From assembly GCA_963714015.1 (NCBI GenBank), contig OY970223.1, positions 1,792,001 to 1,856,000 of the forward strand: DNA of 64,000 bases, read 5' to 3'. Source of the stretch: Vulcanimicrobiota bacterium. GTDB lineage: Bacteria; Vulcanimicrobiota; Vulcanimicrobiia; Vulcanimicrobiales; Vulcanimicrobiaceae. Position 1 is the stretch's first letter. Each line of letters begins with the position of its first letter. The notes beneath the pieces were generated by a model that was given only the letters and a program-made list of their open reading frames with translations, did not search any database and had not been told where the DNA came from. Both the position numbers and the translations under genes were made by a program. Of this stretch, positions 17,669 to 29,978 are shown piece by piece.

Positions 17669-17805
17669 GCAAGGCAGGCGCAACGCTAATTATCGAGACC
17701 GGGTTAGACGTTCTTACCGATAGAGACGATACTTAAGTAGCAAGCTTCAAGCGGGTATAGTCAGGGCGCCGGGTGTGGATTGGAACGAAGGAGTTAGAGC
17801 AGACC

Positions 17806-20304
17806 ATGTCAATGTGGGAACCGTTCACCGAGCGAGCGCGCCGGAGCATCGTTCTGGCGCAAGAAGAGGCGCAGCGTCTCGGTAACAACTACATCGGGAC
17901 CGAGCACATTCTGCTCGGAATCATCTCCGAAGGCGAAAGCCTTGCGGCCAAAGTCCTCGAGACGCTGGGCGTGAATCTCGCGAAGGTTCGCCAAGAGGTC
18001 GAGGCCATCGTCGGACGCGGCGGACAAACGGTTCAGCAAGAGATGGTATTCACTCCCCGCGCAAAACGCGTCATCGAACTGGCTTTCGAAGAAGCACGCC
18101 AGCTGAATCACAACTACATCGGTACGGAACATCTGCTCCTCGGACTAATTCGTGAAGGGGAAGGCGTCGCGGCGCGCGTTCTGACCAATCTGGGCGTCGA
18201 CCCGGCGAAGGTGCGCGTTCAAACCACGTCGCTCTTAGGCGCCGAAGGTCAGCCGCCGGCTCCCAAAGGCAAGAGCAAGACGCCGACCCTTGACGCGTAT
18301 GGCCGCGATCTCACGCAGCTCGCGCGGGAGGCCAAACTCGACCCCGTCATCGGCCGCAGCAGCGAAATAGAGCGCGTCATTCAAATTCTCTCGCGGCGCA
18401 CCAAGAACAATCCGGCGCTCATCGGCGAACCGGGCGTGGGAAAGACGGCGATAGCCGAAGGTTTGGCGCAGCGCGTCATCAAGGGCGACATCCCCGAGCC
18501 GCTGCGCGACAAGCGGGTCATCACGCTCGACTTGGCCGGACTTGTCGCGGGCACCAAGTATCGCGGCGAGTTTGAGGAGCGCATGAAGCGCGTCATGGAC
18601 GAGATCCGCGGCGCTGCCGGCGAGATTATTCTGTTCATCGACGAATTGCACACACTCGTGGGAGCCGGTGCCGCCGAAGGCGCGATCGACGCCAGCAACA
18701 TCATCAAACCGGCGCTCGCACGCGGCGAACTGCAATGCATCGGCGCGACGACGCTCAACGAGTTCCGCAAGCATATCGAAAAAGACTCGGCGCTCGAGCG
18801 GCGCTTCCAGCCAGTCATGGTGGGAGAGCCCAGCGTCGAGGAGACGATCGAGATCCTCAAGGGTCTGCGCGACCGCTACGAAGCGCACCACAAAGTGCAG
18901 ATAACCGATGCCGCGCTGGCGGCAGCCGCCAAACTCGGCGACCGGTATATCACGGATCGCTTCCTGCCCGACAAGGCCGTCGATCTGATCGACGAAGCAG
19001 CTTCGCGCGTTCGTCTGCAAGCAACACTGCCGCCTCCGGAGATTCGGGAGATCGACTCGCAACTGCGGAAGATCATCGCAGAAAAAGAAGCCGTCGTGAA
19101 GGCTCAGGAGTTCGATAAGGCCGCTTCGCTGCGCGACCGCGAGGAGAAGATTCGCCTGGAGAAGGCCCGCCTGGAAAACGAGTGGCAAGAGAAGCGCGCG
19201 CAGAGCGACAAGATCGTCAAAGTCACCGAAGAGGACGTTGCGTACATCGTTTCTTCCTGGACGAAGATTCCGGTCAGCCGGCTTGCCCAAGCGGAGACGG
19301 AGAAGCTGCTCAACATGGCCGACTCGCTGCACAAGCGCGTGGTTGGGCAGGAGGAAGCGGTCAACGTCATCGTCCGCGCCATCCGGCGCTCCCGCGCCGG
19401 TCTGAAAAATCCGAGCCGTCCCATCGGTTCGTTCATGTTCCTCGGGCCGACCGGCGTCGGAAAGACCGAAGTCGCGCGCAGCGTTGCAGAGTTCCTGTTC
19501 GATGATTCGGATTCGATGATTCGCATCGACATGTCGGAGTACATGGAAAAGTACGCCGTTTCACGTTTGGTCGGCGCGCCTCCGGGATACGTCGGTTACG
19601 AGGAAGGCGGTCAGCTCACCGAGGCGGTGCGGCGCCGTCCGTATTCGGTCGTGCTGCTGGACGAAGTCGAGAAAGCGCATCCGGACGTCTTCAACCTGCT
19701 GCTCCAGGTGCTCGACGATGGGCGATTGACCGATTCCCAAGGGCGCCAGGTCGACTTCAAAAACACCGTGATCGTCATGACGTCGAACGTCGGCGCCACC
19801 GGTATGACGACGACTACGGACATCGGTTTCCGCACGAGCAAGACCGAAAACGAAGACGAGTCGCGCCAGTACGAGCGCATGAAGAACAAAGTGCTGGAGG
19901 AAGTCAAGCACACGTTCCGGCCGGAGTTCGTCAACCGCTTGGACGAGATTGTGGTCTTCCATCAGCTGACGCGTCCGCAGATCGAGCAGATCGTCGGACT
20001 GGAACTCGAGAAAGTCATGCGCGAAGTGAAAGCGCAGGAGATGAGCCTCGAGGTAACTGACGAGGCCAAGGCGCTTCTGGCGAAAAAGGGCTGGGATCCG
20101 CAGTACGGCGCGCGTCCGCTGCGCCGCGCTATACAGCGCGAAGTCGAAGACGAGCTGGCCGAGGAGATGCTTCGCGGTACGTTCGGTGCCGGCGATCGCA
20201 TCTTGGGCGAAATCGACCCGGACAATCCGGAGAAACTGCGCTACAGCAAGGTTCCCAACGTGGAACCGCCGCCGCAGCGGGAAGCCGAACACGCCACTTC
20301 GTAG
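17806..20304 (+). CDS. clpC: ATP-dependent Clp protease ATP-binding subunit ClpC
   Basis: two Clp-N repeats, Walker A GEPGVGKT and [11 protein letters not shown]-like middle domain, IGF ClpP-binding loop; AAGGAG upstream. Confidence 0.93.
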
Positions 20305-21122: not shown

Positions 21123-22856
21123 ATGTTTGCCGCTCTTGCACTTGCCGCGATGCTTCAGGTAACGCCGGCGCCCTCGCCCACCGCACCGCCGCCGCCGCCC
21201 ACGCCGGCTGCCTCGCCGCTCGTTTCGCCTGGGCCAACCCCGGCCGCAAGCCCGAGCGTTTCACCCCCTCCGCCGGCTGCCATTGCGGCGCAACCTGCGG
21301 CCGTCGCGCTCCATCCCTCGCAGGCCGTGACAGTGCAAATATCCGGCGGCACCGGTGCGATCAGTGCGGCTCTCGATCAACCGCTGGCAACGGCCGCAGT
21401 CGATGAAACCTCGCGTACGGTAACGGTAACAGCCGGCGCGCAAACCGGCCGGGGAACGTTGACGGTAAACGATTCCGCAGGCGGAAGCGTGCAGATTCCG
21501 GTGCGGGTTGCCTACGATGCGGGCGTCGTGCCTGCGCAGGTCAACGTGCAAGTCACCGGCGATGCGCTCGATCCGCAGTGGCTGCAATCGCAGATCCAAA
21601 AAGCGATCTTGAAAGCGGTTCAGACCCAGCCGGGCATCGCCGCGCAGATCGGCGCTTTCGCGCTGCCGGCGCTGCTTTCGCCCGGCGCCGGCTCCGACAT
21701 CCCGGTGCAGATTCAGATTCCCGGCGGAACGCAGTACTTCGACGTGAACGCACAGACGACGGTCGCGTTGCAAAACGTCGATGCCGGGCCGTTCGCTTCC
21801 GAGCTGCTCTTCTACGATGACGATCCCGAGAAAGTCGTCGCCGACGGAACGCTTTATCAGAACGAAGTGCAGCCCAACGCACCGGCGCGGCTCTATTACT
21901 ACCATCAGAACGCGAACGATCCCCGGCGGATCCTCGTCGTCATCAGCAACGCCGTTCCGAACGATCCGAGCACCGTGCAGCTGATCGACGCGTCCGCCGG
22001 GCCGAACATCGACGTCATGAGCGTTGGACACGCGGTTTCGCGCGATTTTTTGACTTGGAAATCGCACAATCAGGGAATCGTCGCACAAATAGGCCCGAGC
22101 GCGCCGTTTATTGCCGACGAGTTCACCATGCAGCCGCAAGACGGCGCGGCAGGAAGCATCGGCGTGCATGTGTTGAGCGGCGGAGCCGTACAGCTCACGG
22201 TTCTAGCAGTTCCGCCGACCGTCACCGACGCGCAGATCGCGCAGTATTTGAATCAACCGCGGCTGCCGGGAGACGGGCATCACCGCACCGGCGCATTCAC
22301 AGTAAATGATTACGGCACACAGACGCTCTCATACACCGTCGGCGGCGACGATGCAGTGACGCAATACGGCGCCACGACCCCGCCATCCCTCGACGGGAAC
22401 GGTCGCGACTACGGCGATTACGGCGTCCTGCGAACGATGACGTTTGCGGTTCAAAATACCGGCACGCAGCCGGCTACTGTATACTTGTTCGAGCAGCCGA
22501 TGGGCGGAGTTGTGCGCAGCAGCTTCCTGGTAGACGGAACGCTCTATCAAGTCGGATGTGCGCGCGTCTCACAGCGTTACCAAATCGGAAACGCGATTAC
22601 GGTAAACCCAGGGATCTCCAATGTGGTCGTCCAGACGATGACCGACGGAGGCTCGAACTATCCGCTGGAAGTCGGTATGACTGTCACGCCGCCGCTTCCG
22701 GCCACGCCGCCGATCTCGGCGCCCGATGGCTGCTTCCCAAAACCGCAACAGGCCGCTCCGCCGGTTCCTGCTCCATCACCCTCGGCAACGCCGGGCGCAA
22801 CACCGCCCGCGACACCCGCGGAATCACCCTCGCCGCAGCCGGAGCCAACCGGCTAA
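21123..22856 (+). CDS. exported hypothetical protein with Pro-rich termini and Ig-like N-terminal region
   Basis: short signal peptide, P/S/A/T-rich linkers, beta-rich body with DDPE and GDYGV motifs. Confidence 0.7.
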   Translation: MFAALALAAMLQVTPAPSPTAPPPPPTPAASPLVSPGPTPAASPSVSPPPPAAIAAQPAAVALHPSQAVTVQISGGTGAISAALDQPLATAAVDETSRTVTVTAGAQTGRGTLTVNDSAGGSVQIPVRVAYDAGVVPAQVNVQVTGDALDPQWLQSQIQKAILKAVQTQPGIAAQIGAFALPALLSPGAGSDIPVQIQIPGGTQYFDVNAQTTVALQNVDAGPFASELLFYDDDPEKVVADGTLYQNEVQPNAPARLYYYHQNANDPRRILVVISNAVPNDPSTVQLIDASAGPNIDVMSVGHAVSRDFLTWKSHNQGIVAQIGPSAPFIADEFTMQPQDGAAGSIGVHVLSGGAVQLTVLAVPPTVTDAQIAQYLNQPRLPGDGHHRTGAFTVNDYGTQTLSYTVGGDDAVTQYGATTPPSLDGNGRDYGDYGVLRTMTFAVQNTGTQPATVYLFEQPMGGVVRSSFLVDGTLYQVGCARVSQRYQIGNAITVNPGISNVVVQTMTDGGSNYPLEVGMTVTPPLPATPPISAPDGCFPKPQQAAPPVPAPSPSATPGATPPATPAESPSPQPEPTG

Positions 22857-23202: not shown

Positions 23203-23317
23203 CCGTCCAGCATAAGCGGCTCTGCTGAGCGGCAACTTAGAACAAAATTAGACTTCGCGGCACTATTTGAGGCCATTTTGATGGCAGCCAAGTCACCCGA
23301 GTGGCACAATATTGGTA

Positions 23318-24313
23318 ATGGAACGCACGAATGAACCCAAAATCGTCCTGCTCGTACGGCTTCTGAACGCCATCGACGAGGGGCGCTTCTCTTTCGAGCA
23401 ACTCAAGGATCGCATCTCCGAAGGCGAGCATCGGCCGAGCACGCGAAGCCTCCGGCGGTATTTGGCGGTCCTCGCCGATGCCGGCTTCCCGTGGTACTTC
23501 GATCGGGCGACGAACACGTACCGGTTCTCCGGCGGGTACAGCCTCAAGAGGCTGGAGTCGAGCAACAGCGAGCTGTTCGGGCTTGTGGCGCTGCGCGCCA
23601 TCAGCGCGAGCCTCGGCGGCGCCATCGGTACCTACGTCGATGAGGTAACGGATAAGATGGTCGGCTCGGCCGGCCGCGGCGTAAAGGAGCGCTTGAACAC
23701 CGCTCCATCGGTAGCATTCCGCCTGAGCGAGATTCGTCTGGACGAACAAGGCGAGCGCGTTTTCAGCCAACTGTCGGCAGCCGAGCGCAGTTCCCGGAGC
23801 GTAGCCTTCAGCTATGAGGACAAGGAAGGTCACCGCAGCAAGCGAGTCGCCGATCCGTACGGGTTCATCCTGAGCGGCGGGCGCGTGTACTGCGTTGCAT
23901 TCGACCACGACCGGCGCGACAAACGCACGTTTGCCGTCGACAGCATGAGCGACCTCAACGTGCTCGCGCAGACGTTCACGAAACCAAGCAGTTTCAGCAT
24001 CGAGGACTTTGCCTCCAGTTCGATCAGCGGCGTGCTGCACAGCGAGAAGATGCAAGAGGTTCGGGTGCGGTTTTTGCCTCGCGTCGCCAAAGCCGCTGCC
24101 GCCGCAAATGTCGTCGCCGATCGCAGCGTGCAACGATTGCAGGACGGCTCGGTCGAGATTACCTATCACGTTGCGGACCTCGACGAACTTTGCCGCTGGA
24201 TCCTGAGTTGGGGTCCGCAAGCGGAGATCGTCTCCCCTGCGGCCGCGCGCGATCGCGTGCACATGCTGATCGCCCAAATCGCCGCGAAGTACGAGTTGCC
24301 CGTCTCGAAGTAG
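23318..24313 (+). CDS. WYL-domain transcriptional regulator (wHTH-WYL-WCX; PafBC/DriD-like)
   Basis: N-terminal HTH (STRSLRRYLAVL); WYL core R-ADPYGF...YCVAFD...RTFAVDSM; WCX tail WILSWGPQAEIVSP. Confidence 0.9.
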   Translation: MERTNEPKIVLLVRLLNAIDEGRFSFEQLKDRISEGEHRPSTRSLRRYLAVLADAGFPWYFDRATNTYRFSGGYSLKRLESSNSELFGLVALRAISASLGGAIGTYVDEVTDKMVGSAGRGVKERLNTAPSVAFRLSEIRLDEQGERVFSQLSAAERSSRSVAFSYEDKEGHRSKRVADPYGFILSGGRVYCVAFDHDRRDKRTFAVDSMSDLNVLAQTFTKPSSFSIEDFASSSISGVLHSEKMQEVRVRFLPRVAKAAAAANVVADRSVQRLQDGSVEITYHVADLDELCRWILSWGPQAEIVSPAAARDRVHMLIAQIAAKYELPVSK

Positions 24314-24348
24314 CGTCGGCCCGCGCTTCATGGTTTGATCGGGCGCCC

Positions 24349-24389
24349 GAAAACGAAAACCCCGGGGAGTATTTCGTCCCCGGGGTTTC
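24349..24389 (-). terminator. intrinsic terminator of ncRNA copy 1
   Basis: minus strand GAAACCCCGGGGA-CGAAATAC-TCCCCGGGGTTTT-CGTTTTC. Confidence 0.8.
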
Positions 24390-24557
24390 GACGTTTGCTC
24401 GGCAGTTTTGGTTCGTGCCTGTTTGGCTCCGGGTGAGAAGCCCTACTGACACGACTGCCGGTTAAGATCTCGCACTCCGGAAACCGACTCTCATCTGCTC
24501 CATCTGCGTGCTCGATCGCGGCTCCACGTCGCCGCGCTTCAACTTTTGCTTGAAGTG
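24349..24557 (-). ncRNA. candidate structured ncRNA, copy 1 of a tandem pair (family not recognised)
   Basis: own promoter; 5' hairpin CUUCAA/UUGAAG; core GUC-AGUAG-GGCUUC-N6-GGAGCC-AAACA-GGC (24417-24450) closed by GGCAGU/ACUGCC; terminator at the 3' end. Confidence 0.7.
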
Positions 24558-24562
24558 TTTGC

Positions 24563-24591
24563 ATGGTAGCAAATGCAGATTGCCATCGCAA
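24563..24591 (-). promoter_or_regulatory. sigma70-type promoter of ncRNA copy 1
   Basis: TTGCGA (24591-24586), 17 bp, TACCAT (24568-24563), with extended -10 TG. Confidence 0.7.
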
Positions 24592-24604
24592 GACCATAAG
24601 CGGC

Positions 24605-24689
24605 TCATTCACAAGCTATTCGCAAGAAACCGGACTTATTCACGTTTTATTCGAAGTTCGCGTAATGTGAATGCGGGGCGTGTGGAAAA
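24605..24689. promoter_or_regulatory. cluster of DnaA-box-like 9-mers upstream of ncRNA copy 1
   Basis: against TTWTNCACA: TCATTCACA 24605 (1 mismatch), CTATTCGCA 24616 (2), TTATTCACG 24636 (1), TTATTCGAA 24647 (2), inverted TTTTCCACA 24681-24689 (0). Confidence 0.5.
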
Positions 24690-24719
24690 CGAAAATCCCG
24701 GACGAAGTCCGGGATTCTC
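24685..24719 (-). terminator. intrinsic terminator of ncRNA copy 2
   Basis: minus strand GAGAATCCCGGAC-TTC-GTCCGGGATTTTC-GTTTTC. Confidence 0.8.
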
Positions 24720-24884
24720 GACGTATTCACTCATCTTGTTTCGCCTGTTTGGCTTCCGTGAAGAAGCCCTACTGACGCTACGGACGGTTCGACCGTTCCA
24801 CTCGGATCGCCGACGTGCGACTGCATCGTCAACATGGTCCGGTCACGACGATACGCTCATCGCACTTCGCTGTTATACGAAGTG
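24685..24884 (-). ncRNA. candidate structured ncRNA, copy 2 of a tandem pair (family not recognised)
   Basis: own promoter; 5' hairpin CACUUCG/CGAAGUG; core GUC-AGUAG-GGCUUC-N6-GAAGCC-AAACA-GGC (24743-24776, 29/34 identical to copy 1); terminator at the 3' end. Confidence 0.7.
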
Positions 24885-24889
24885 TTTGC

Positions 24890-24918
24890 ATGGTATCACC
24901 GGGCAAAAGTCGTAGCAA
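24890..24918 (-). promoter_or_regulatory. sigma70-type promoter of ncRNA copy 2
   Basis: TTGCTA (24918-24913), 17 bp, TACCAT (24895-24890), with extended -10 TG; exactly 327 bp from promoter 1. Confidence 0.7.
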
Positions 24919-24931
24919 GGGGAGGCCGCGT

Positions 24932-25001
24932 GTATGCACAGCGTTTCCACAAGAATCTGCGGTTATACACAGTGGTCCAATCGTTATGCTCATTTTCCAC
25001 C
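24932..25001 (+). promoter_or_regulatory. cluster of five co-oriented DnaA-box-like 9-mers
   Basis: GTATGCACA 24932 (1 mismatch), GTTTCCACA 24943 (1), TTATACACA 24963 (0), TTATGCTCA 24984 (1), TTTTCCACC 24993 (1). Confidence 0.6.
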
Positions 25002-25003
25002 GA

Positions 25004-25492
25004 ATGAACGGGGTGAATGTGAACCTACTTTTTGCCGCCGTGCTGCTCGCGCAAAGCATGTTTTCCGGCTTGCCGATCGACGGAATCCGCTGCGATGCCT
25101 CGGAAGGAGTGGCCGAGCATGTCCACACGCATTTACAGCTTTTCAATCGGGGTCATGCCGTCACCGTGCCGGCCGACATCGGCATTCCGCTCGGCGCCGG
25201 CTGCCTGTATTGGCTCCATACGCACGCGACCGACGGGCTGATCCACATCGAAGCGCCGGTCAGCAAACCGTTCACACTCGGTCAGTTCTTCGACGTGTGG
25301 GGCGATACGCTCAGCCGTACTCAGGCCAGCAGCGTGCGCGCTTCAAAAGGGCGCACTCTGCGCGTCACCGTCAACGGCAAAATATGGAGCGGCAACCCCC
25401 GCTCCATTCCGCTGCGCGATCGGGAAGAGATCGTAATTCAAAACGGTCCGCCGTATTCTTTGGGCCACGCAGCGGACTGGTCCAAGATGTAA
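25004..25492 (+). CDS. exported hypothetical protein with His-rich motifs
   Basis: short signal peptide; EHVHTHL, CLYWLHTHATDGLIHIEAP, FTLGQFFDVWG; start could also be GTG 25013 or 25019. Confidence 0.75.
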   Translation: MNGVNVNLLFAAVLLAQSMFSGLPIDGIRCDASEGVAEHVHTHLQLFNRGHAVTVPADIGIPLGAGCLYWLHTHATDGLIHIEAPVSKPFTLGQFFDVWGDTLSRTQASSVRASKGRTLRVTVNGKIWSGNPRSIPLRDREEIVIQNGPPYSLGHAADWSKM

Positions 25493-25540: not shown

Positions 25541-27101
25541 ATGACTATCGCCGCCCTGCCTACAATCGATCTCGACGGAAGACGCCTGTCCTTGGAAGCC
25601 ATCCGCGACATCGCCGAAGAGGGGGCGCCGGTACGGATCACGAGCGATGCCCGGGCTCGGGTCGCCTCGGCGCGCCGGCTCGTCGACGAGAAATTCGGGA
25701 TCGGCGATGCCATCTACGGTGTAACGACCGGATTCGGCCGCCTTGCGAATGTGCAGATAGACCCAAAAGACGCGGCTCAGCTGCAACTGAACCTCGTGCG
25801 CAGTCATGCCGCCGGCACCGGCGAGCCGTTGCCCAGAGATTTCGTTCGCGCCGCCGGCGTGCTGCGAGCCAGTTCGCTTGCTGCCGGACATTCCGGAATC
25901 AAGGAGTCGACGCTCGACCTGCTCGTCGAGCTGCTCAATCGCGGCGTCACTCCGGTCGTTCCGCGGCAAGGATCGGTCGGCGCCAGCGGTGACCTTGCTC
26001 CGCTCGCCCACATGACGCTCACGCTCATCGGTGAAGGCGAAGCGACGTTCCGCGGCGAGCGGATGCCGAGCGCTCGCGCGCTGCATCTGGCGGGACTGCA
26101 GCCGATCGAACTGGGCGCGAAGGAAGGTTTGGCGCTCGTCAACGGCACCGAAGTCATGACCGGAATCGCCGCGCTCTGCGTCCTTCGTGCGGAGCGGTTG
26201 ATGGCCGCCGCGGACGTCATCGGGGCAATGGCACTCGAAGCGTTCTTGGGAACCGATCGCGTCTTCGATCGGCGCATCAACGCGCTCCGTCCGCACCCGG
26301 GGCAAGCTCGAGTTGCCGACAATTTGCGCGTGCTGCTCGAAGGTTCCGAGATCATGGAATCTCATCGCGAGTGCGGCCGCGTTCAAGATCCGTATTCGTA
26401 CCGGTGCATCCCGGTGGTACACGGCACCGTGCGTGACGCGGCGCAGCATTCGCGCAAAGTCGTCGAAATCGAAGCCGTCTCCGTGACCGACAACCCGCTG
26501 GTCTTTCCCGAGGACGGCGAATTCCTGACGGGCGGAAACTTTCACGGACAACCGGTCGCGCTCGCAAGCGATCTGTTGAAGATCGCGATGGCGGAACTTG
26601 CGGCGATAAGCGAGCGCCGTTTGTATCTGCTGCTCAACGCCGAAGAGCGCGGGCTGCCGCTTTTTTTGACAGGGCGTTCCGGGTTGCAGTCGGGATTGAT
26701 GATCGTGCAGTACACGTCGGCTGCGATGGTGTCGGAGAATAAAGGTTTAGCGTGGCCGAACAGCGTCGATTCGATTCCGACGTCGGCCGGACAAGAGGAC
26801 CACGTCAGCATGGGAATGACGGCGGCGATCAATTTGGATCGCGTGCTGCAGAATGTCGAAGGATCGCTCGCCTGCGAACTGCTCGGCGCCTTGACCGCAA
26901 CGGACATTCGCCGGCCGCTGAAGTCCGGCCGCGGGACGCAGGCCGCTCACGCCGTTGCGCGCCGGCGCATCGCGCCGTGGACCGAAGACCGGGTTCCGGC
27001 TCCCGACATCGAGGCTGCGCGAGAACTGATACGCAGCGGGGAGCTCGGTGCGCGCGGCGGAAGATGCGATAGGAATTTCATTGATTGGGAGTGCTGCCTA
27101 A
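25541..27101 (+). CDS. hutH: histidine ammonia-lyase (probable +1 indel near 27047 in the last ~20 codons)
   Basis: [11 protein letters not shown] motif [34 protein letters not shown]; removing one G gives [23 protein letters not shown] just before hutU. Confidence 0.93.
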
Positions 27102-27102
27102 G

Positions 27103-28770
27103 ATGAGTTCGAGTACGGTTGCAAGCGGTCCGCGCCTCGTTCGCGCGCCTAGAGGAACGCAGCTGAGCTGTCAAGGCTGGCCGCAAGAAGCGGCGCTGCG
27201 TATGCTGATGAACAACTTGGATCCTGCCGTTGCGGAAAAGCCGGACGATCTGGTCGTTTACGGCGGCAACGGCCGCGCGGCGCGTTCGTGGGAAGCCTTC
27301 GATGCTATTGTTCGAACGCTCCGGCGGTTGAAAAACAACGAGACGCTGATCGTGCAGAGCGGCAAGCCCGTAGCCGTATGGAAGACGCACGAGCGCGCAC
27401 CGCGCGTGCTGATCGCGAATTCCAACTTGGTGCCGAAGTGGGGGGATTGGAAAATCTTCCGCGCTTTGGAAGCGCAAGGGCTGACGATGTACGGGCAGAT
27501 GACGGCCGGATCGTGGATATACATCGGCACGCAAGGCATCGTTCAAGGCACGTACGAGACGTTTGCCGAGCTTGCGCGCCGGCACTTCGGCGGGACGCTG
27601 AAAGGCCGCGTCTGCCTGACGGCAGGCATCGGCGGCATGGGCGGCGCGCAGCCGCTGGCCATCACGATGAACGAGGGAATCGCGATCGTCGTCGACGTCG
27701 ATCGCGCGCGCTTGGAACGGCGTAAGGAACTGCGCTATTTGGACGTGGTTGCCGATTCGCGCGACGACGCATTGGCATTGGCCGAGGAATCTCGCCGCGC
27801 CGGAAAAGCGCTCTCGGTCGGCTATGAAGGCAACGCCGCGCAGGAGTTTCCGGCACTGTACGACATCGGATTTCGGCCGGATGCCGTGACCGATCAGACG
27901 TCGGCGCACGATATGATCGACGGGTACGTGCCGCTGGGTCTTACGCTCGAAGAAGCGGAGTTGCTGCGCCGCACCGATCCCGAGGATTACGAGAAGCGCG
28001 GTCTTGCGAGCGTGGCCAAGCACGTGCAAGCGATGCTCGACTTTCAGCGCGCCGGCGCAGTGGTTTTTGATTACGGCAATAACATCCGCGCGCAAGCGCA
28101 GCGCGCCGGAGTGAACGACGCATTCGACTTTCCCGGATTCGTACCGGCCTTCATCCGGCCGCTGTTCTGCAAAGGCAGCGGACCATTCCGGTTTGCCGCG
28201 CTCTCGGGTGAGGAAGCCGATATCGCGCGATGCGACGACGAGCTGCTCGCCCTCTTCCCTCATGACGAACATCTGCGCCGCTGGATCACGCTCGCGAGGG
28301 AACGGGTGGCATTTCAAGGTTTGCCTGCGCGCATATGCTGGCTCGGATTCGGCGATCGCGCAAAAGCGGGGCTGCGTTTCAACGAACTCGTGCGCAGAGG
28401 AGAGCTGCGCGCGCCCATCGTCATCGGGCGCGATCACTTGGATACGGGGAGCGTTGCTTCGCCATACCGTGAAACCGAAGCAATGAAAGACGGCAGCGAC
28501 GCTATCGCCGATTGGCCGATCTTGAATGCGCTGCTGAACACGGCCGCCGGCGCACACTGGGTCTCGGTTCACCACGGAGGAGGCGTCGGCATCGGCTACA
28601 GTATCCATGCCGGCATGGTGGTAGTCGCCGACGGCAGCCAGGACGCACGGGAGCGGCTCGAGTGCGTCCTTACGACGGATTGCGGAATGGGCGTCGTTCG
28701 CCACGCCGATGCGGGATACGAGCTCGCAGCCGAAACGGCGGACGAAAAAGGCATCGATTGGCGTCTCTAA
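27103..28770 (+). CDS. hutU: urocanate hydratase
   Basis: [51 protein letters not shown]. Confidence 0.96.
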
Positions 28771-29978
28771 TCCGGGCGAAGACGCTCGTTACCAATACCG
28801 GAAGCCTAAAGCAAAACGGCCTGACGTTCGCCGATCTCGGAACGTTCGAAGACGGGGCACTGCTCGTGGACGGCGGCAAAGTCGTACGGGCGGGGACTCG
28901 TCACGGGGTTGAAGCGGGCCTGAGAGCGACGGGCGATCCGGATATTCTGGATTTCCAGGATTGCGTCGTCGTTCCGGGATTCGTCGATGCGCACTCGCAC
29001 CCACTGTTTGCCGGAGATCGCGAGCCCGATTTCGCCGCGCGTCAGCGCGGCGAGCCGCCGCCGCTCGGCATGCTCTACACCGTGGAGCAGACGCGCAAAG
29101 CACTCGAGCACGAAAACCGTTTTTGGGACAAAGTACGCGCGCGGCTGATGCTTATCGCGGCGCACGGCACTACGACGCTCGAAACCAAAACCGGGTACGC
29201 GCTGCACGGTCCCGGCGAGGCGCAGTTGCTGCGCATGATCGACGCGAACAAGGACGCTCCGCAGTTGCCGCGTCTGGTTGCGACGTTCTTGGGCGCGCAC
29301 GCGCTTCCGCCGGAATTTCGCAACGAAGTCGACTACGTCGACTACTTGATCGACCAATGCCTGCCGGTCGCTAAAGCCGACGGTGCGGTGTATGCCGACG
29401 CGTTTTGCGAGCCCGGCTTCTTTTCGCCGGAACAGACGAAACGCTATCTCGAAGCAGCGCGCGCGGCTGGACTGCGCCTTCGCGTGCATTGTGATGAGAT
29501 GGCCTTCGGTGGGGCGGCCGAGATGGCGGCAGCCGTTGGAGTCGATGCTGCCGACCATTGCAATTGCATCCGCCCCCAGGACGTTGCCGCAATCGTCGCG
29601 CGCGGAATCGTTACGGTCGCATGTCCGGCGACCATCGCATACTTGGATCTGCAGCGGCGGGCGCCGGTTCGCGCGCTGCTGGAGTCAGGCGGCGACGTTG
29701 CGCTCGCGAGCGATTACAATCCCGGAACATCGCCCTGCTTCAACCTTCAAACGGTAGCGTACTTTGGAAGGCGCTTGTTCGGGCTTTCTGCCGCTGAGGC
29801 GCTTTACGGCGTGACCGTTGCAGCGGCAAGGTCGCTCCGCGTCGATGCAGGATCGCTTCGAGTCGGGGCGAGCGCGGACTTTGCCGTTCTGGAGATCGAG
29901 TCTCCGGACGAGTTCGGCTGGCAATTCGGCGGCAATTTGGCGCGCGCGGTTTTTCGTAAAGGCGTGCGCGCTGCGTGA
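28758..29978 (+). CDS. hutI: imidazolonepropionase
   Basis: [44 protein letters not shown] start overlapping the hutU end. Confidence 0.9.

Follow-up and report, generated by a model that had tools for sequence, protein, structure and literature searches.

This work describes two adjacent RNA genes carried by the minus strand (positions 24345-24925) of a 64,000-nt stretch of contig OY970223.1 (positions 1,792,001 to 1,856,000), hereafter the window, to which all coordinates refer unless the genome is named. Each gene is about 200 nt long and has its own TTGCnA-17-TACCAT promoter and its own terminator made of a hairpin and a U-tract. We hold with high confidence that they are real structured non-coding RNA (ncRNA) genes and belong to a lineage-restricted family of Baltobacteraceae (Candidatus Eremiobacterota) that had not been described before and whose members, present in multiple copies, are compactly folded ncRNAs of about 200 nt. 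RNA 1 (paralogue A; 24686..24883, minus strand, about 198 nt with predicted ends) comprises the helices P1 and P2, a P3 domain, a P4 hairpin, a pseudoknot tail and the terminator; RNA 2 (paralogue B; 24350..24556, minus strand, about 207 nt) has the same architecture. An initial annotation of this locus had reported two minus-strand units whose -10 boxes lie 327 nt apart, and this layout is what we read in the sequence. Directly 3′ of the -10 box, both units carry the 11-mer GCAAACACTTC (24889-24879 in unit 1, i.e., RNA 1), followed by two hairpins, the first being the 5′ hairpin, then by about 60 nt over which the units are less similar, and by the core. The core of unit 1 (24776-24743, GTCAGTAGGG...CCAAACAGGC) is 34 nt long and, as already noted in that annotation, 29 of its 34 positions are identical between the copies; in both units it precedes ACGTCGA and a GC-rich hairpin with TTTTCGTTTT. 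The compensatory differences that had been pointed out in the 5′ hairpin and in the core stem are also present. Overall, RNA 1 and RNA 2 are 56% identical over model-aligned columns, and the folding energies of the two units (-86.7 kcal/mol with z = -5.08 for unit 1, -92.0 kcal/mol with z = -5.74 for unit 2) were equalled by none of 200 shuffles in either case.

The structural analysis was based on three alignments: (i) A2, which includes 27 units and was used to build the covariance model R1, (ii) A3, which includes 98 model-aligned R1 matches corresponding to 93 distinct sequences, and (iii) A4, which includes 39 units of a diverged subfamily and was used to build a second model, R2. R1 matches RNA 1 with 199.3 bits (24680-24889) and RNA 2 with 140.9 bits (24344-24562). 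RNAalifold applied to A2 found P1, P2, a long-range P3 stem, the P4 hairpin and the terminator, with compensatory changes in 18 of the 32 pairs. The fold that emerges consists of P1, P2, the P3 domain and a long P4 hairpin whose internal loops are conserved, with a pseudoknot linking the P2 loop to the 3′ tail. This fold is maintained by compensatory substitutions. In the 93 distinct sequences, 91.7% of the cells are paired, compared to 82.6% in shuffles and 27.7-42.8% with slid partners; 34 of 42 pairs have changed on both sides, compared to a mean of 21.6 in shuffles and 15-18 with slid partners; and the covariation score reaches 0.341, compared to 0.178 in shuffles (none of 500 attaining 0.341) and at most 0.099 with slid partners. 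The P4 core of RNA 1 (24743..24776, minus strand, GUCAGUAGGG...CCAAACAGGC) is a stem interrupted by a conserved 1x1 and a conserved 2x2 internal loop; the two P4 helices (helices 6 and 7) are paired in 99.3% and 94.4% of the cells, and all six upper pairs show compensatory changes. The same is true of all seven pairs of the terminator helix.

The pseudoknot was added by eye, as a pairing of the P2 loop (ACGUA) with a tail (UACGU) located just 5′ of the terminator, and is absent from the fitted model. In RNA 1, its 5′ strand, GCGUAU, lies in the P2 loop at 24851..24856 (minus strand) and faces AUACGU at 24726-24721; the tail abuts the terminator without overlapping it. This pairing is found in 84.4% of the cells in the 93 distinct sequences and exists in several variants (ACGCAU/AUGCGU, CGUGU/ACACG and UGUAG/CUACA). 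Furthermore, loops pair better with their own tails (-4.53 kcal/mol) than with the tails of other sequences (-3.40 kcal/mol; 50 non-consensus sequences, 0 of 2000 permutations). The diverged subfamily has another pair at these two positions, GCGAGAA/UUCUCGY, of which GUGAGAA/UUCUCAC is a compensatory variant. This subfamily also differs by its P1 helix (CGUCG/CGACG instead of CUUCG/CGAAG) and by the internal loops of its P4 core.

No reading frame is kept in these sequences, in line with the initial annotation: each of the six frames is free of stop codons in only 9 to 16 of the 93 sequences, and 576 of the 605 pairwise indel runs are not multiples of three. A coding gene was therefore rejected as an explanation of the locus, whose overlapping open reading frames (ORFs) at 24328-24612 (minus), 24508-24915 (plus) and 24829-25146 (minus) have neither a Pfam match nor a conserved frame. 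The two units had also been described as a constant scaffold with a dissimilar middle, the latter serving as the variable insert of a guide, decoy or sponge RNA. The copies do differ in this part; however, it is not a free insert, since its length and its sequence in orthologues are conserved. The distance from the 5′ motif to the core is 135-140 nt in units having both motifs, orthologues of unit 1 keep the middle at 80-87% identity, and in other genera the BLAST matches spanning query positions 1-239 are 84-86% identical. The middle forms a structured P3 domain, and the stem that closes it covaries (helix 4, compensatory changes in four of four pairs). BLAST searches of the own genome found nothing else that matches the middle or the region (next best E value of 0.5), and searches of phage records and plasmid records with the variable middle gave no match. 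The guide reading thus fails because the middle is a conserved structured domain. As to sponges of the CsrB/RsmZ type, these display many GGA motifs in hairpin loops; here, GGA triplets are few and located in stems, and the loops carry no repeated motif. A viral origin was considered and rejected: the core pattern gave four matches in viral contigs, with 10.9-18.4 bits over part of the model, which we read as chance; the single one inspected has no hairpin, and none of the four has a Rfam match.

The absence of a match to known RNA families, which the initial annotation had proposed, was confirmed by a scan with Rfam 15 (4227 models), which gave no match at the gathering score in the whole window. 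At E values up to 10, five sub-threshold matches were obtained between 24100 and 25200, mostly on the terminator hairpins, the best one being Guanidine-II on the RNA 2 terminator (18.9 bits for a threshold of 32). Seven related loci gave no match at E values up to 0.1. No T-box was found at the locus, even at E values up to 10, nor in the seven related loci. The only match of the genome to 6S RNA (RF00013) is a full-length one at 780882-781068 on the plus strand (30.1 bits, E value of 3.7e-4, threshold of 46.4) and may be the 6S RNA of this lineage; this location and the multi-hairpin consensus fold led us to reject a 6S identity for the two RNAs. The signal recognition particle (SRP) RNA was likewise rejected, as its match (RF00169, 74 bits) is at 2525463-2525561 of the genome and not at the RNA locus. 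The proposal of two independently transcribed, structured RNA genes under selection for structure is thus supported by the covariation of the fold and by the lack of a conserved frame, and the two genes belong to no Rfam family.

The search of related genomes with R1, another step foreseen in the initial annotation, revealed homologues in 95 of 150 sampled Baltobacteraceae genomes, with one to three copies each; the own genome (3.56 Mb) contains exactly the two copies of the window. With stricter filters, R1 matched 53 of 71 genomes of this family in a phylum-wide sample, compared to none of 79 genomes from 20 other families. When the 581-nt region was used as a BLAST query, related sequences were detected in 17 of 36 other Baltobacteraceae genomes, compared to none of 24 genomes from two other families of the class. 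Two weak R1 matches led to the diverged subfamily, which BLAST detected in 35 of 401 genomes; one genus, represented by 33 genomes, accounts for 31 of these. R2 found the subfamily in six of six genomes of that genus, with three or four tandem copies each, and in one genome of a second genus; a still wider distribution was rejected, since the other R2 matches have 24-32 bits and the two that were inspected look like coding sequence. Loci L199, L200, L202, L205 and L207, among others, carry three or four tandem and independently promoted diverged copies, about 300-550 nt apart and each with its own array of TGTGGAnAA boxes. The BLAST tallies (family and diverged subfamily) and the R1 tally on 150 genomes include the unpublished genomes G021, G030, G158, G144, G023, G067 and G381, and G021 and G030 contribute two rows to A2 and two to A3; none of the claims depends solely on unpublished genomes. 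On a FastTree of the 93 sequences (midpoint-rooted, without support values and built on a short alignment), RNA 1 and its orthologues form clade A; a second group includes the tandem copies of the RNA 2 type (B) and copies located at a second chromosomal site (C). Given this tree and their identity of 56%, the two copies of the window are old paralogues and not recent duplicates. Two or more old paralogues are retained in most genomes of the family.

Each copy constitutes a transcription unit of its own, which runs from a conserved promoter of the extended -10 type to a terminator; even in tandem arrays, each copy has its own promoter. The RNA 1 promoter (24890..24918, minus strand) has a -35 box TTGCTA (24918-24913), a 17-nt spacer, a TG at 24898-24897 (extended -10) and a -10 box TACCAT (24895-24890). 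The RNA 2 promoter (24563..24591, minus strand) combines TTGCGA (24591-24586), a 17-nt spacer and TACCAT (24568-24563). When 93 distinct upstream regions were aligned on the -10 box, CTTGC...TG.TACCAT gave the best conserved columns, so that the promoter initially described in both units holds on direct reading and by its conservation in relatives. The intrinsic terminator of RNA 1 (24686..24716, minus strand) has its stem at 24716-24694, followed by UUUUCGUUUU; that of RNA 2 (24350..24385, minus strand) reads CCCCGGGG...CCCCGGGG, then UUUUCGUUUU. The latter is located 37 nt from the stop codon of a convergent gene encoding a WYL regulator, and it could be bidirectional and serve this gene too. 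A simple consensus scan found no promoter-like site at the locus, because the hexamers match only 8 of 12 positions, and flagged neither terminator; therefore, the promoter and terminator calls rest on conservation in relatives.

Three public RNA libraries from three studies match the locus, with a small share of the sampled words (0.05-0.06). Their contigs, of 140-163 nt, are 90-95% alike, as expected of relatives, and cover only 24709-24869, inside RNA 1. Their mean word depth is 10 and 6 in two cases and 822 and 3570 for the contigs of one soil metatranscriptome. RNA 2 is touched by a single 40-nt piece and the flanks are uncovered; such gaps are no evidence of absence. Some contigs run at their ends into unrelated sequence, which we take to be sequencing adapters. 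These data hint at a very high abundance of relatives of RNA 1, in the form of short RNA, in soil samples.

All copies share a further feature, since phased TGTGnAnAn direct repeats precede every promoter. Upstream of the RNA 1 promoter, the array of 9-mers (24932..24971, minus strand) includes TGTGTATAA (24971-24963), TGTGGAAAC (24951-24943) and TGTGCATAC (24940-24932), and two more boxes with two mismatches lie just 5′ of it (24984-25001). The RNA 2 array (24605..24644, minus strand) includes CGTGAATAA (24644-24636), TGCGAATAG (24624-24616) and TGTGAATGA (24613-24605). The three 9-mers are separated by 21-22 nt and then by 11 nt, their consensus being TGTGnATAA near -83, TGTGGAnAn near -62 and TGTGArTnn near -51. 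The middle box is found in all 93 upstream regions, the proximal box in 84 and the exact form of the distal box in 55; by eye, some of the remaining regions carry one-mismatch forms of the latter, such as CGTG or GGTG. In its 55 exact occurrences, the distal box has T (n = 55), G (n = 55), T (n = 54), G (n = 55), a free fifth position, then A (n = 44), T (n = 52), A (n = 52) and A (n = 51). TGTG-type 9-mers are found 313 times on the RNA strand of these 93 regions versus 64 times on the opposite strand. Over the whole genome, a 28-nt weight matrix built on the proximal box pair matches only the two RNA promoters (32.2 bits for RNA 2 and 29.9 bits for RNA 1, the next best having 16.7 bits), and the RNA 1 promoter is the densest same-strand box cluster of the 3.56 Mb (four boxes within 60 nt, next best three). 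In the diverged subfamily, the boxes are of the TGTGGACAA type (TGTGGAnAA), in places four or five at a spacing of about 11 nt.

The consensus of the DnaA box is TTATnCACA, whose opposite strand reads TGTGnATAA, and at the sequence level the upstream repeats agree with this 9-mer. Identical 9-mers (TTATCCACTTATCCACA, ATTTCCACA and TTGTCCACA) are carried by the other strand in the region upstream of dnaA in the own genome. dnaA is located at 711928-712413 of the genome, where the minimum of the GC skew is near 0.70 Mb. The segment 712850-713150 of the genome, which adjoins dnaA at the GC-skew minimum, carries the boxes TTATCCACTTATCCACA, ATTTCCACA, TTGTCCACA and TGTGGAGAG and is the probable oriC or dnaA promoter region. 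The RNA locus (1.8166 Mb) was itself considered as an oriC and rejected, being 1.1 Mb from the GC-skew minimum and dnaA (0.712 Mb). Direct repeats with a period of 11 nt also fit the sites of response regulators of the OmpR/PhoB type. Going by the repeats themselves, DnaA would be the best match for the protein that binds the array, an OmpR/PhoB-type response regulator or the neighbouring WYL protein being alternatives.

Concerning the neighbouring genes, the two RNAs are convergent with a gene encoding a WYL + WCX regulator (23312..24313, plus strand; Pfam WYL, E value of 5e-17; WCX, E value of 1e-15). Upstream of the latter, a 577-aa ORF (21123-22856, plus strand) has no match in Pfam, NCBIfam or PADLOC, is conserved at 28-73% identity in most related loci and may form an operon with the regulator gene; a ClpC-type AAA+ chaperone with Clp_N, a UVR motif and two AAA domains is encoded at 17773-20304 (plus strand). 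On the other side, RNA 1 is divergent from small ORF X (25004..25492, plus strand), whose control region overlaps the RNA 1 box array. ORF X has no match in Pfam or to another family, its frame is conserved according to tblastn, and its product of about 160 aa has a hydrophobic N-terminus resembling a signal peptide. It is followed by histidine utilisation genes (25541-29978, plus strand), also divergent from RNA 1: hutH (aromatic amino-acid lyase, E value of 5e-190), hutU (urocanase, three domains) and, 3′ of hutU, an amidohydrolase gene that is probably hutI. The locus was examined as a defence island and rejected as such, PADLOC returning only generic WYL matches for the regulator and nothing for its neighbours. 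In the first 30 related loci, a conserved divergent ORF is found upstream in all 30 and a convergent WYL gene downstream in 25. Conversely, an R1 match lies within 3 kb of the WYL homologue in 55 of 80 loci, nearly always convergent and with its 3′ end at the WYL stop codon; the other 25 WYL loci have no R1 match, two of these loci being cut off too close to WYL for a conclusion. X directly follows WYL, without any RNA between them, in 11 loci that encode a WYL protein of 49-55% identity; an insertion of the RNA genes between these two genes in one lineage is probable. At locus L102 (WYL 64% identical), hutH begins about 90 nt after WYL, with neither an RNA match nor ORF X between them, which looks like a secondary loss of the RNA within the RNA-bearing clade. 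Ten genomes have two dispersed copies, the second of which is at a locus devoid of WYL, X and hutH. These ten genomes and the 11 WYL loci without RNA led us to reject an obligate link between WYL and the RNAs.

The surroundings of these second copies (paralogue C) are of particular relevance, since a gene encoding an OPT oligopeptide transporter (PF03169, E values of 1e-96 to 2e-99) is nearby in eight of the ten genomes. OPT is near the RNA in 12 related loci. In six of them, the OPT gene is on the same strand and begins only 17-42 nt past the RNA, which leaves no room for a separate promoter; it is about 1.2-1.3 kb downstream on the same strand in three, and upstream in three. At one of the 1.2-1.3-kb loci, the intervening same-strand ORF has a tannase/esterase-type match (E value of 3e-9). 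The C copies have short U-tracts (CUUUG...), and not all of them lead an OPT gene: at L167:4200-4320 (plus strand; relative G174), a separate promoter-like sequence, TTGACG...GATAAAGT, lies 3′ of the C copy and precedes a gene starting with MEVRVAPGESIESAL, which presumably encodes ribosomal protein S21. Overall, neither copy of the window is in a 5′ UTR, their downstream WYL gene being convergent, whereas paralogue C is in this position in six of the 12 loci and possibly in three more.

We propose that the three-dimensional fold of these RNAs would bind a protein or a small ligand and thereby account for their action, which would not depend on a variable guide or an exposed seed. One DNA-binding protein recognising the repeat array would set the transcription of all copies. 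Copies A and B, with strong terminators and no same-strand gene downstream, would be released as free RNAs, while paralogue C, with the same fold and a weaker U-tract, would probably be a leader setting read-through into OPT; the free copies would then compete, as decoys or titrators, for the partner of paralogue C. This mechanism, i.e., binding of a partner through the fold by free and leader copies, is tentative and somewhat doubtful in our judgement, and we regard the chances that the family and the mechanism together form the best explanation as evenly balanced. Several points weigh against this interpretation. A3 was fitted to the model structure, which inflates the pair counts except for those of the pseudoknot and of an extra helix, P4a; the latter is tentative, being paired in only 68.2% of the cells at fixed columns. 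The sequences share kinship, so that the shuffle controls overstate significance. The library data are contigs of relatives and not reads of the organism itself, they come without strand, ends or habitat, and DNA carry-over may contribute to them. The partner, ligand or target of the RNA is postulated, and the binding of DnaA to the boxes is suggested by sequence likeness only. A scan of all column pairs found no convincing conserved antiterminator or alternative helix, which makes regulated termination at paralogue C a conjecture. An exchange between P1 and the base of the terminator was considered as a switch and is unsupported, since P1 changed in the diverged subfamily and the terminator base did not. 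Moreover, the copies of the window have no downstream gene, so the leader reading is not directly applicable to them, and the presence of WYL genes without RNA in distant relatives weakens a functional link between the regulator and the RNAs.

Two other accounts keep the RNA as the active molecule. The RNAs could be an orphan sensor of the riboswitch type, that is, an aptamer for a small molecule tied to peptide or amino-acid use, in which C would control the OPT operon by termination while A and B would act in trans or drive ligand-dependent antisense read-through into WYL. The pseudoknotted architecture, in which the conserved nucleotides occupy internal loops and junctions instead of stems, argues for such a sensor, as do the position of paralogue C directly 5′ of the transporter gene in six of 12 loci and 5′ of a hydrolase-like ORF and OPT in three, its short U-tract, and the proximity of copy A to the histidine utilisation genes. 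However, both copies of the window and most copies overall are outside any 5′ UTR, each has its own promoter even in tandem, no conserved antiterminator emerged from the column-pair scan, no Rfam riboswitch matches, and the internal loops of the P4 core differ between the subfamilies, which is unusual for a ligand pocket; we thus consider this account unlikely. The RNAs could also be classical trans-acting small RNAs (sRNAs) that repress or activate mRNAs by pairing through a short seed, multi-copy families of which include Qrr, PrrF1/2 and AbcR1/2. In favour of such a family, the genes stand alone, have a promoter and end at a Rho-independent terminator; genomes carry two to four paralogues, frequently arranged in tandem; and a promoter array common to all copies suggests co-regulation. 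Nevertheless, almost the entire RNA is paired, conservation concerns the structure, through compensatory changes in P1, P2, P3, P4 and the pseudoknot, and not an exposed stretch, and the conserved positions are paired or in internal loops, the hairpin loops being variable. The likely start is 0-2 nt before P1, which leaves no 5′ single-stranded seed, and BLAST found no complementary site in the own genome (best E value of 0.5), a search that short seeds would escape. This account therefore appears rather improbable.

Two further accounts start from the boxes. In one, the RNAs would be the output of a DnaA-sensing promoter, whose box array, the densest of the chromosome outside or even including oriC, would drive fold-based regulatory RNAs. 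We judge this distinctly improbable; if true, it would provide an RNA route from the status of the replication initiator to nutrient uptake, through the OPT leader and through the control region shared with the hut genes. In the other, selection would act mainly on the DNA, the boxes titrating or reactivating DnaA as do the DnaA-box clusters datA and DARS, and the promoter and RNA only modulating their occupancy. The agreement of the boxes with TGTGnATAA and TGTGGAnAn, the same 9-mers on the other strand 5′ of dnaA, the record density of boxes at the RNA 1 promoter and the arrays of four to five boxes at about 11-nt spacing in the diverged subfamily are consistent with this. However, it accounts neither for about 200 nt of covarying RNA structure nor for the high depth seen in RNA libraries, the locus lies 1.1 Mb away from oriC, and the spacing and repeat type also fit response-regulator sites, all of which makes selection on the DNA highly improbable.

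Candidatus Eremiobacterota (WPS-2) is a widespread phylum of soil and peat, known almost only from metagenomes. The family described here is present in about two thirds or more of the sampled Baltobacteraceae genomes and apparently ranks among the abundant transcripts of soil libraries; RNAs of such a profile have earlier proved to be riboswitches, ribozymes or protein-regulating RNAs. The repeat array, possibly made of DnaA boxes, and the leader position at OPT are two concrete experimental handles, and the covariance models R1 and R2 can be used for metagenome annotation and for submission to Rfam.

Among known systems, raiA motif RNA, OLE and ROOL are orphan bacterial ncRNAs with complex folds. 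Like them, the RNAs reported here reach about 200 nt or more, have their own promoter and terminator, combine several helices with a pseudoknot, keep conserved nucleotides in loops and junctions, and are lineage-restricted, abundant and devoid of an obvious cis target. They differ by the lack of a match in Rfam 15, which includes models of such families, by their occurrence in Eremiobacterota, by their two to four diverged and often tandem paralogues, and by their dedicated array of direct repeats. GlmY and GlmZ of enterobacteria are homologous structured sRNAs of about 200 nt, with several activator sites 5′ of their promoters, one of which decoys the factor of the other. The pair found here is similar in being made of structured paralogues of about 200 nt, kept side by side, with promoters behind repeated sites; however, it has no homology to them, no link to glmS and, unlike GlmZ, no base-pairing site seen here, and its decoy relation is a conjecture. 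SreA/SreB of Listeria and EutX/Rli55 are free RNAs derived from riboswitches or leaders, with a possible second role in trans. They share with the present family a terminated leader-type fold, paralogue C being directly 5′ of a transporter gene, whereas most copies here, among them both of the window, lack a gene downstream, and the scan for an antiterminator was negative. 6S RNA, of about 190 nt, is also abundant and acts through its shape, but it is one long rod with a central bubble, compared to five separate helices and a pseudoknot here. The nearest item that we found in the literature on DnaA boxes with sRNAs is CcnA, a cell-cycle ncRNA of Caulobacter whose expression is reported to be tied to master regulators of replication and of the cell cycle (PMC8959179). 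CcnA is reported to be a base-pairing sRNA of an alphaproteobacterium (PMC8959179) and has no homology to the RNAs of the window; the link of the latter to DnaA consists only of box likeness, at a locus far from oriC. A search of the literature on regulatory RNAs or ncRNAs of Eremiobacterota, judged by title or abstract, found nothing relevant. Overall, the kind to which these genes belong, the orphan bacterial ncRNA with a complex fold, is known, while the family, its system of paralogues and its repeat-array promoter are new.

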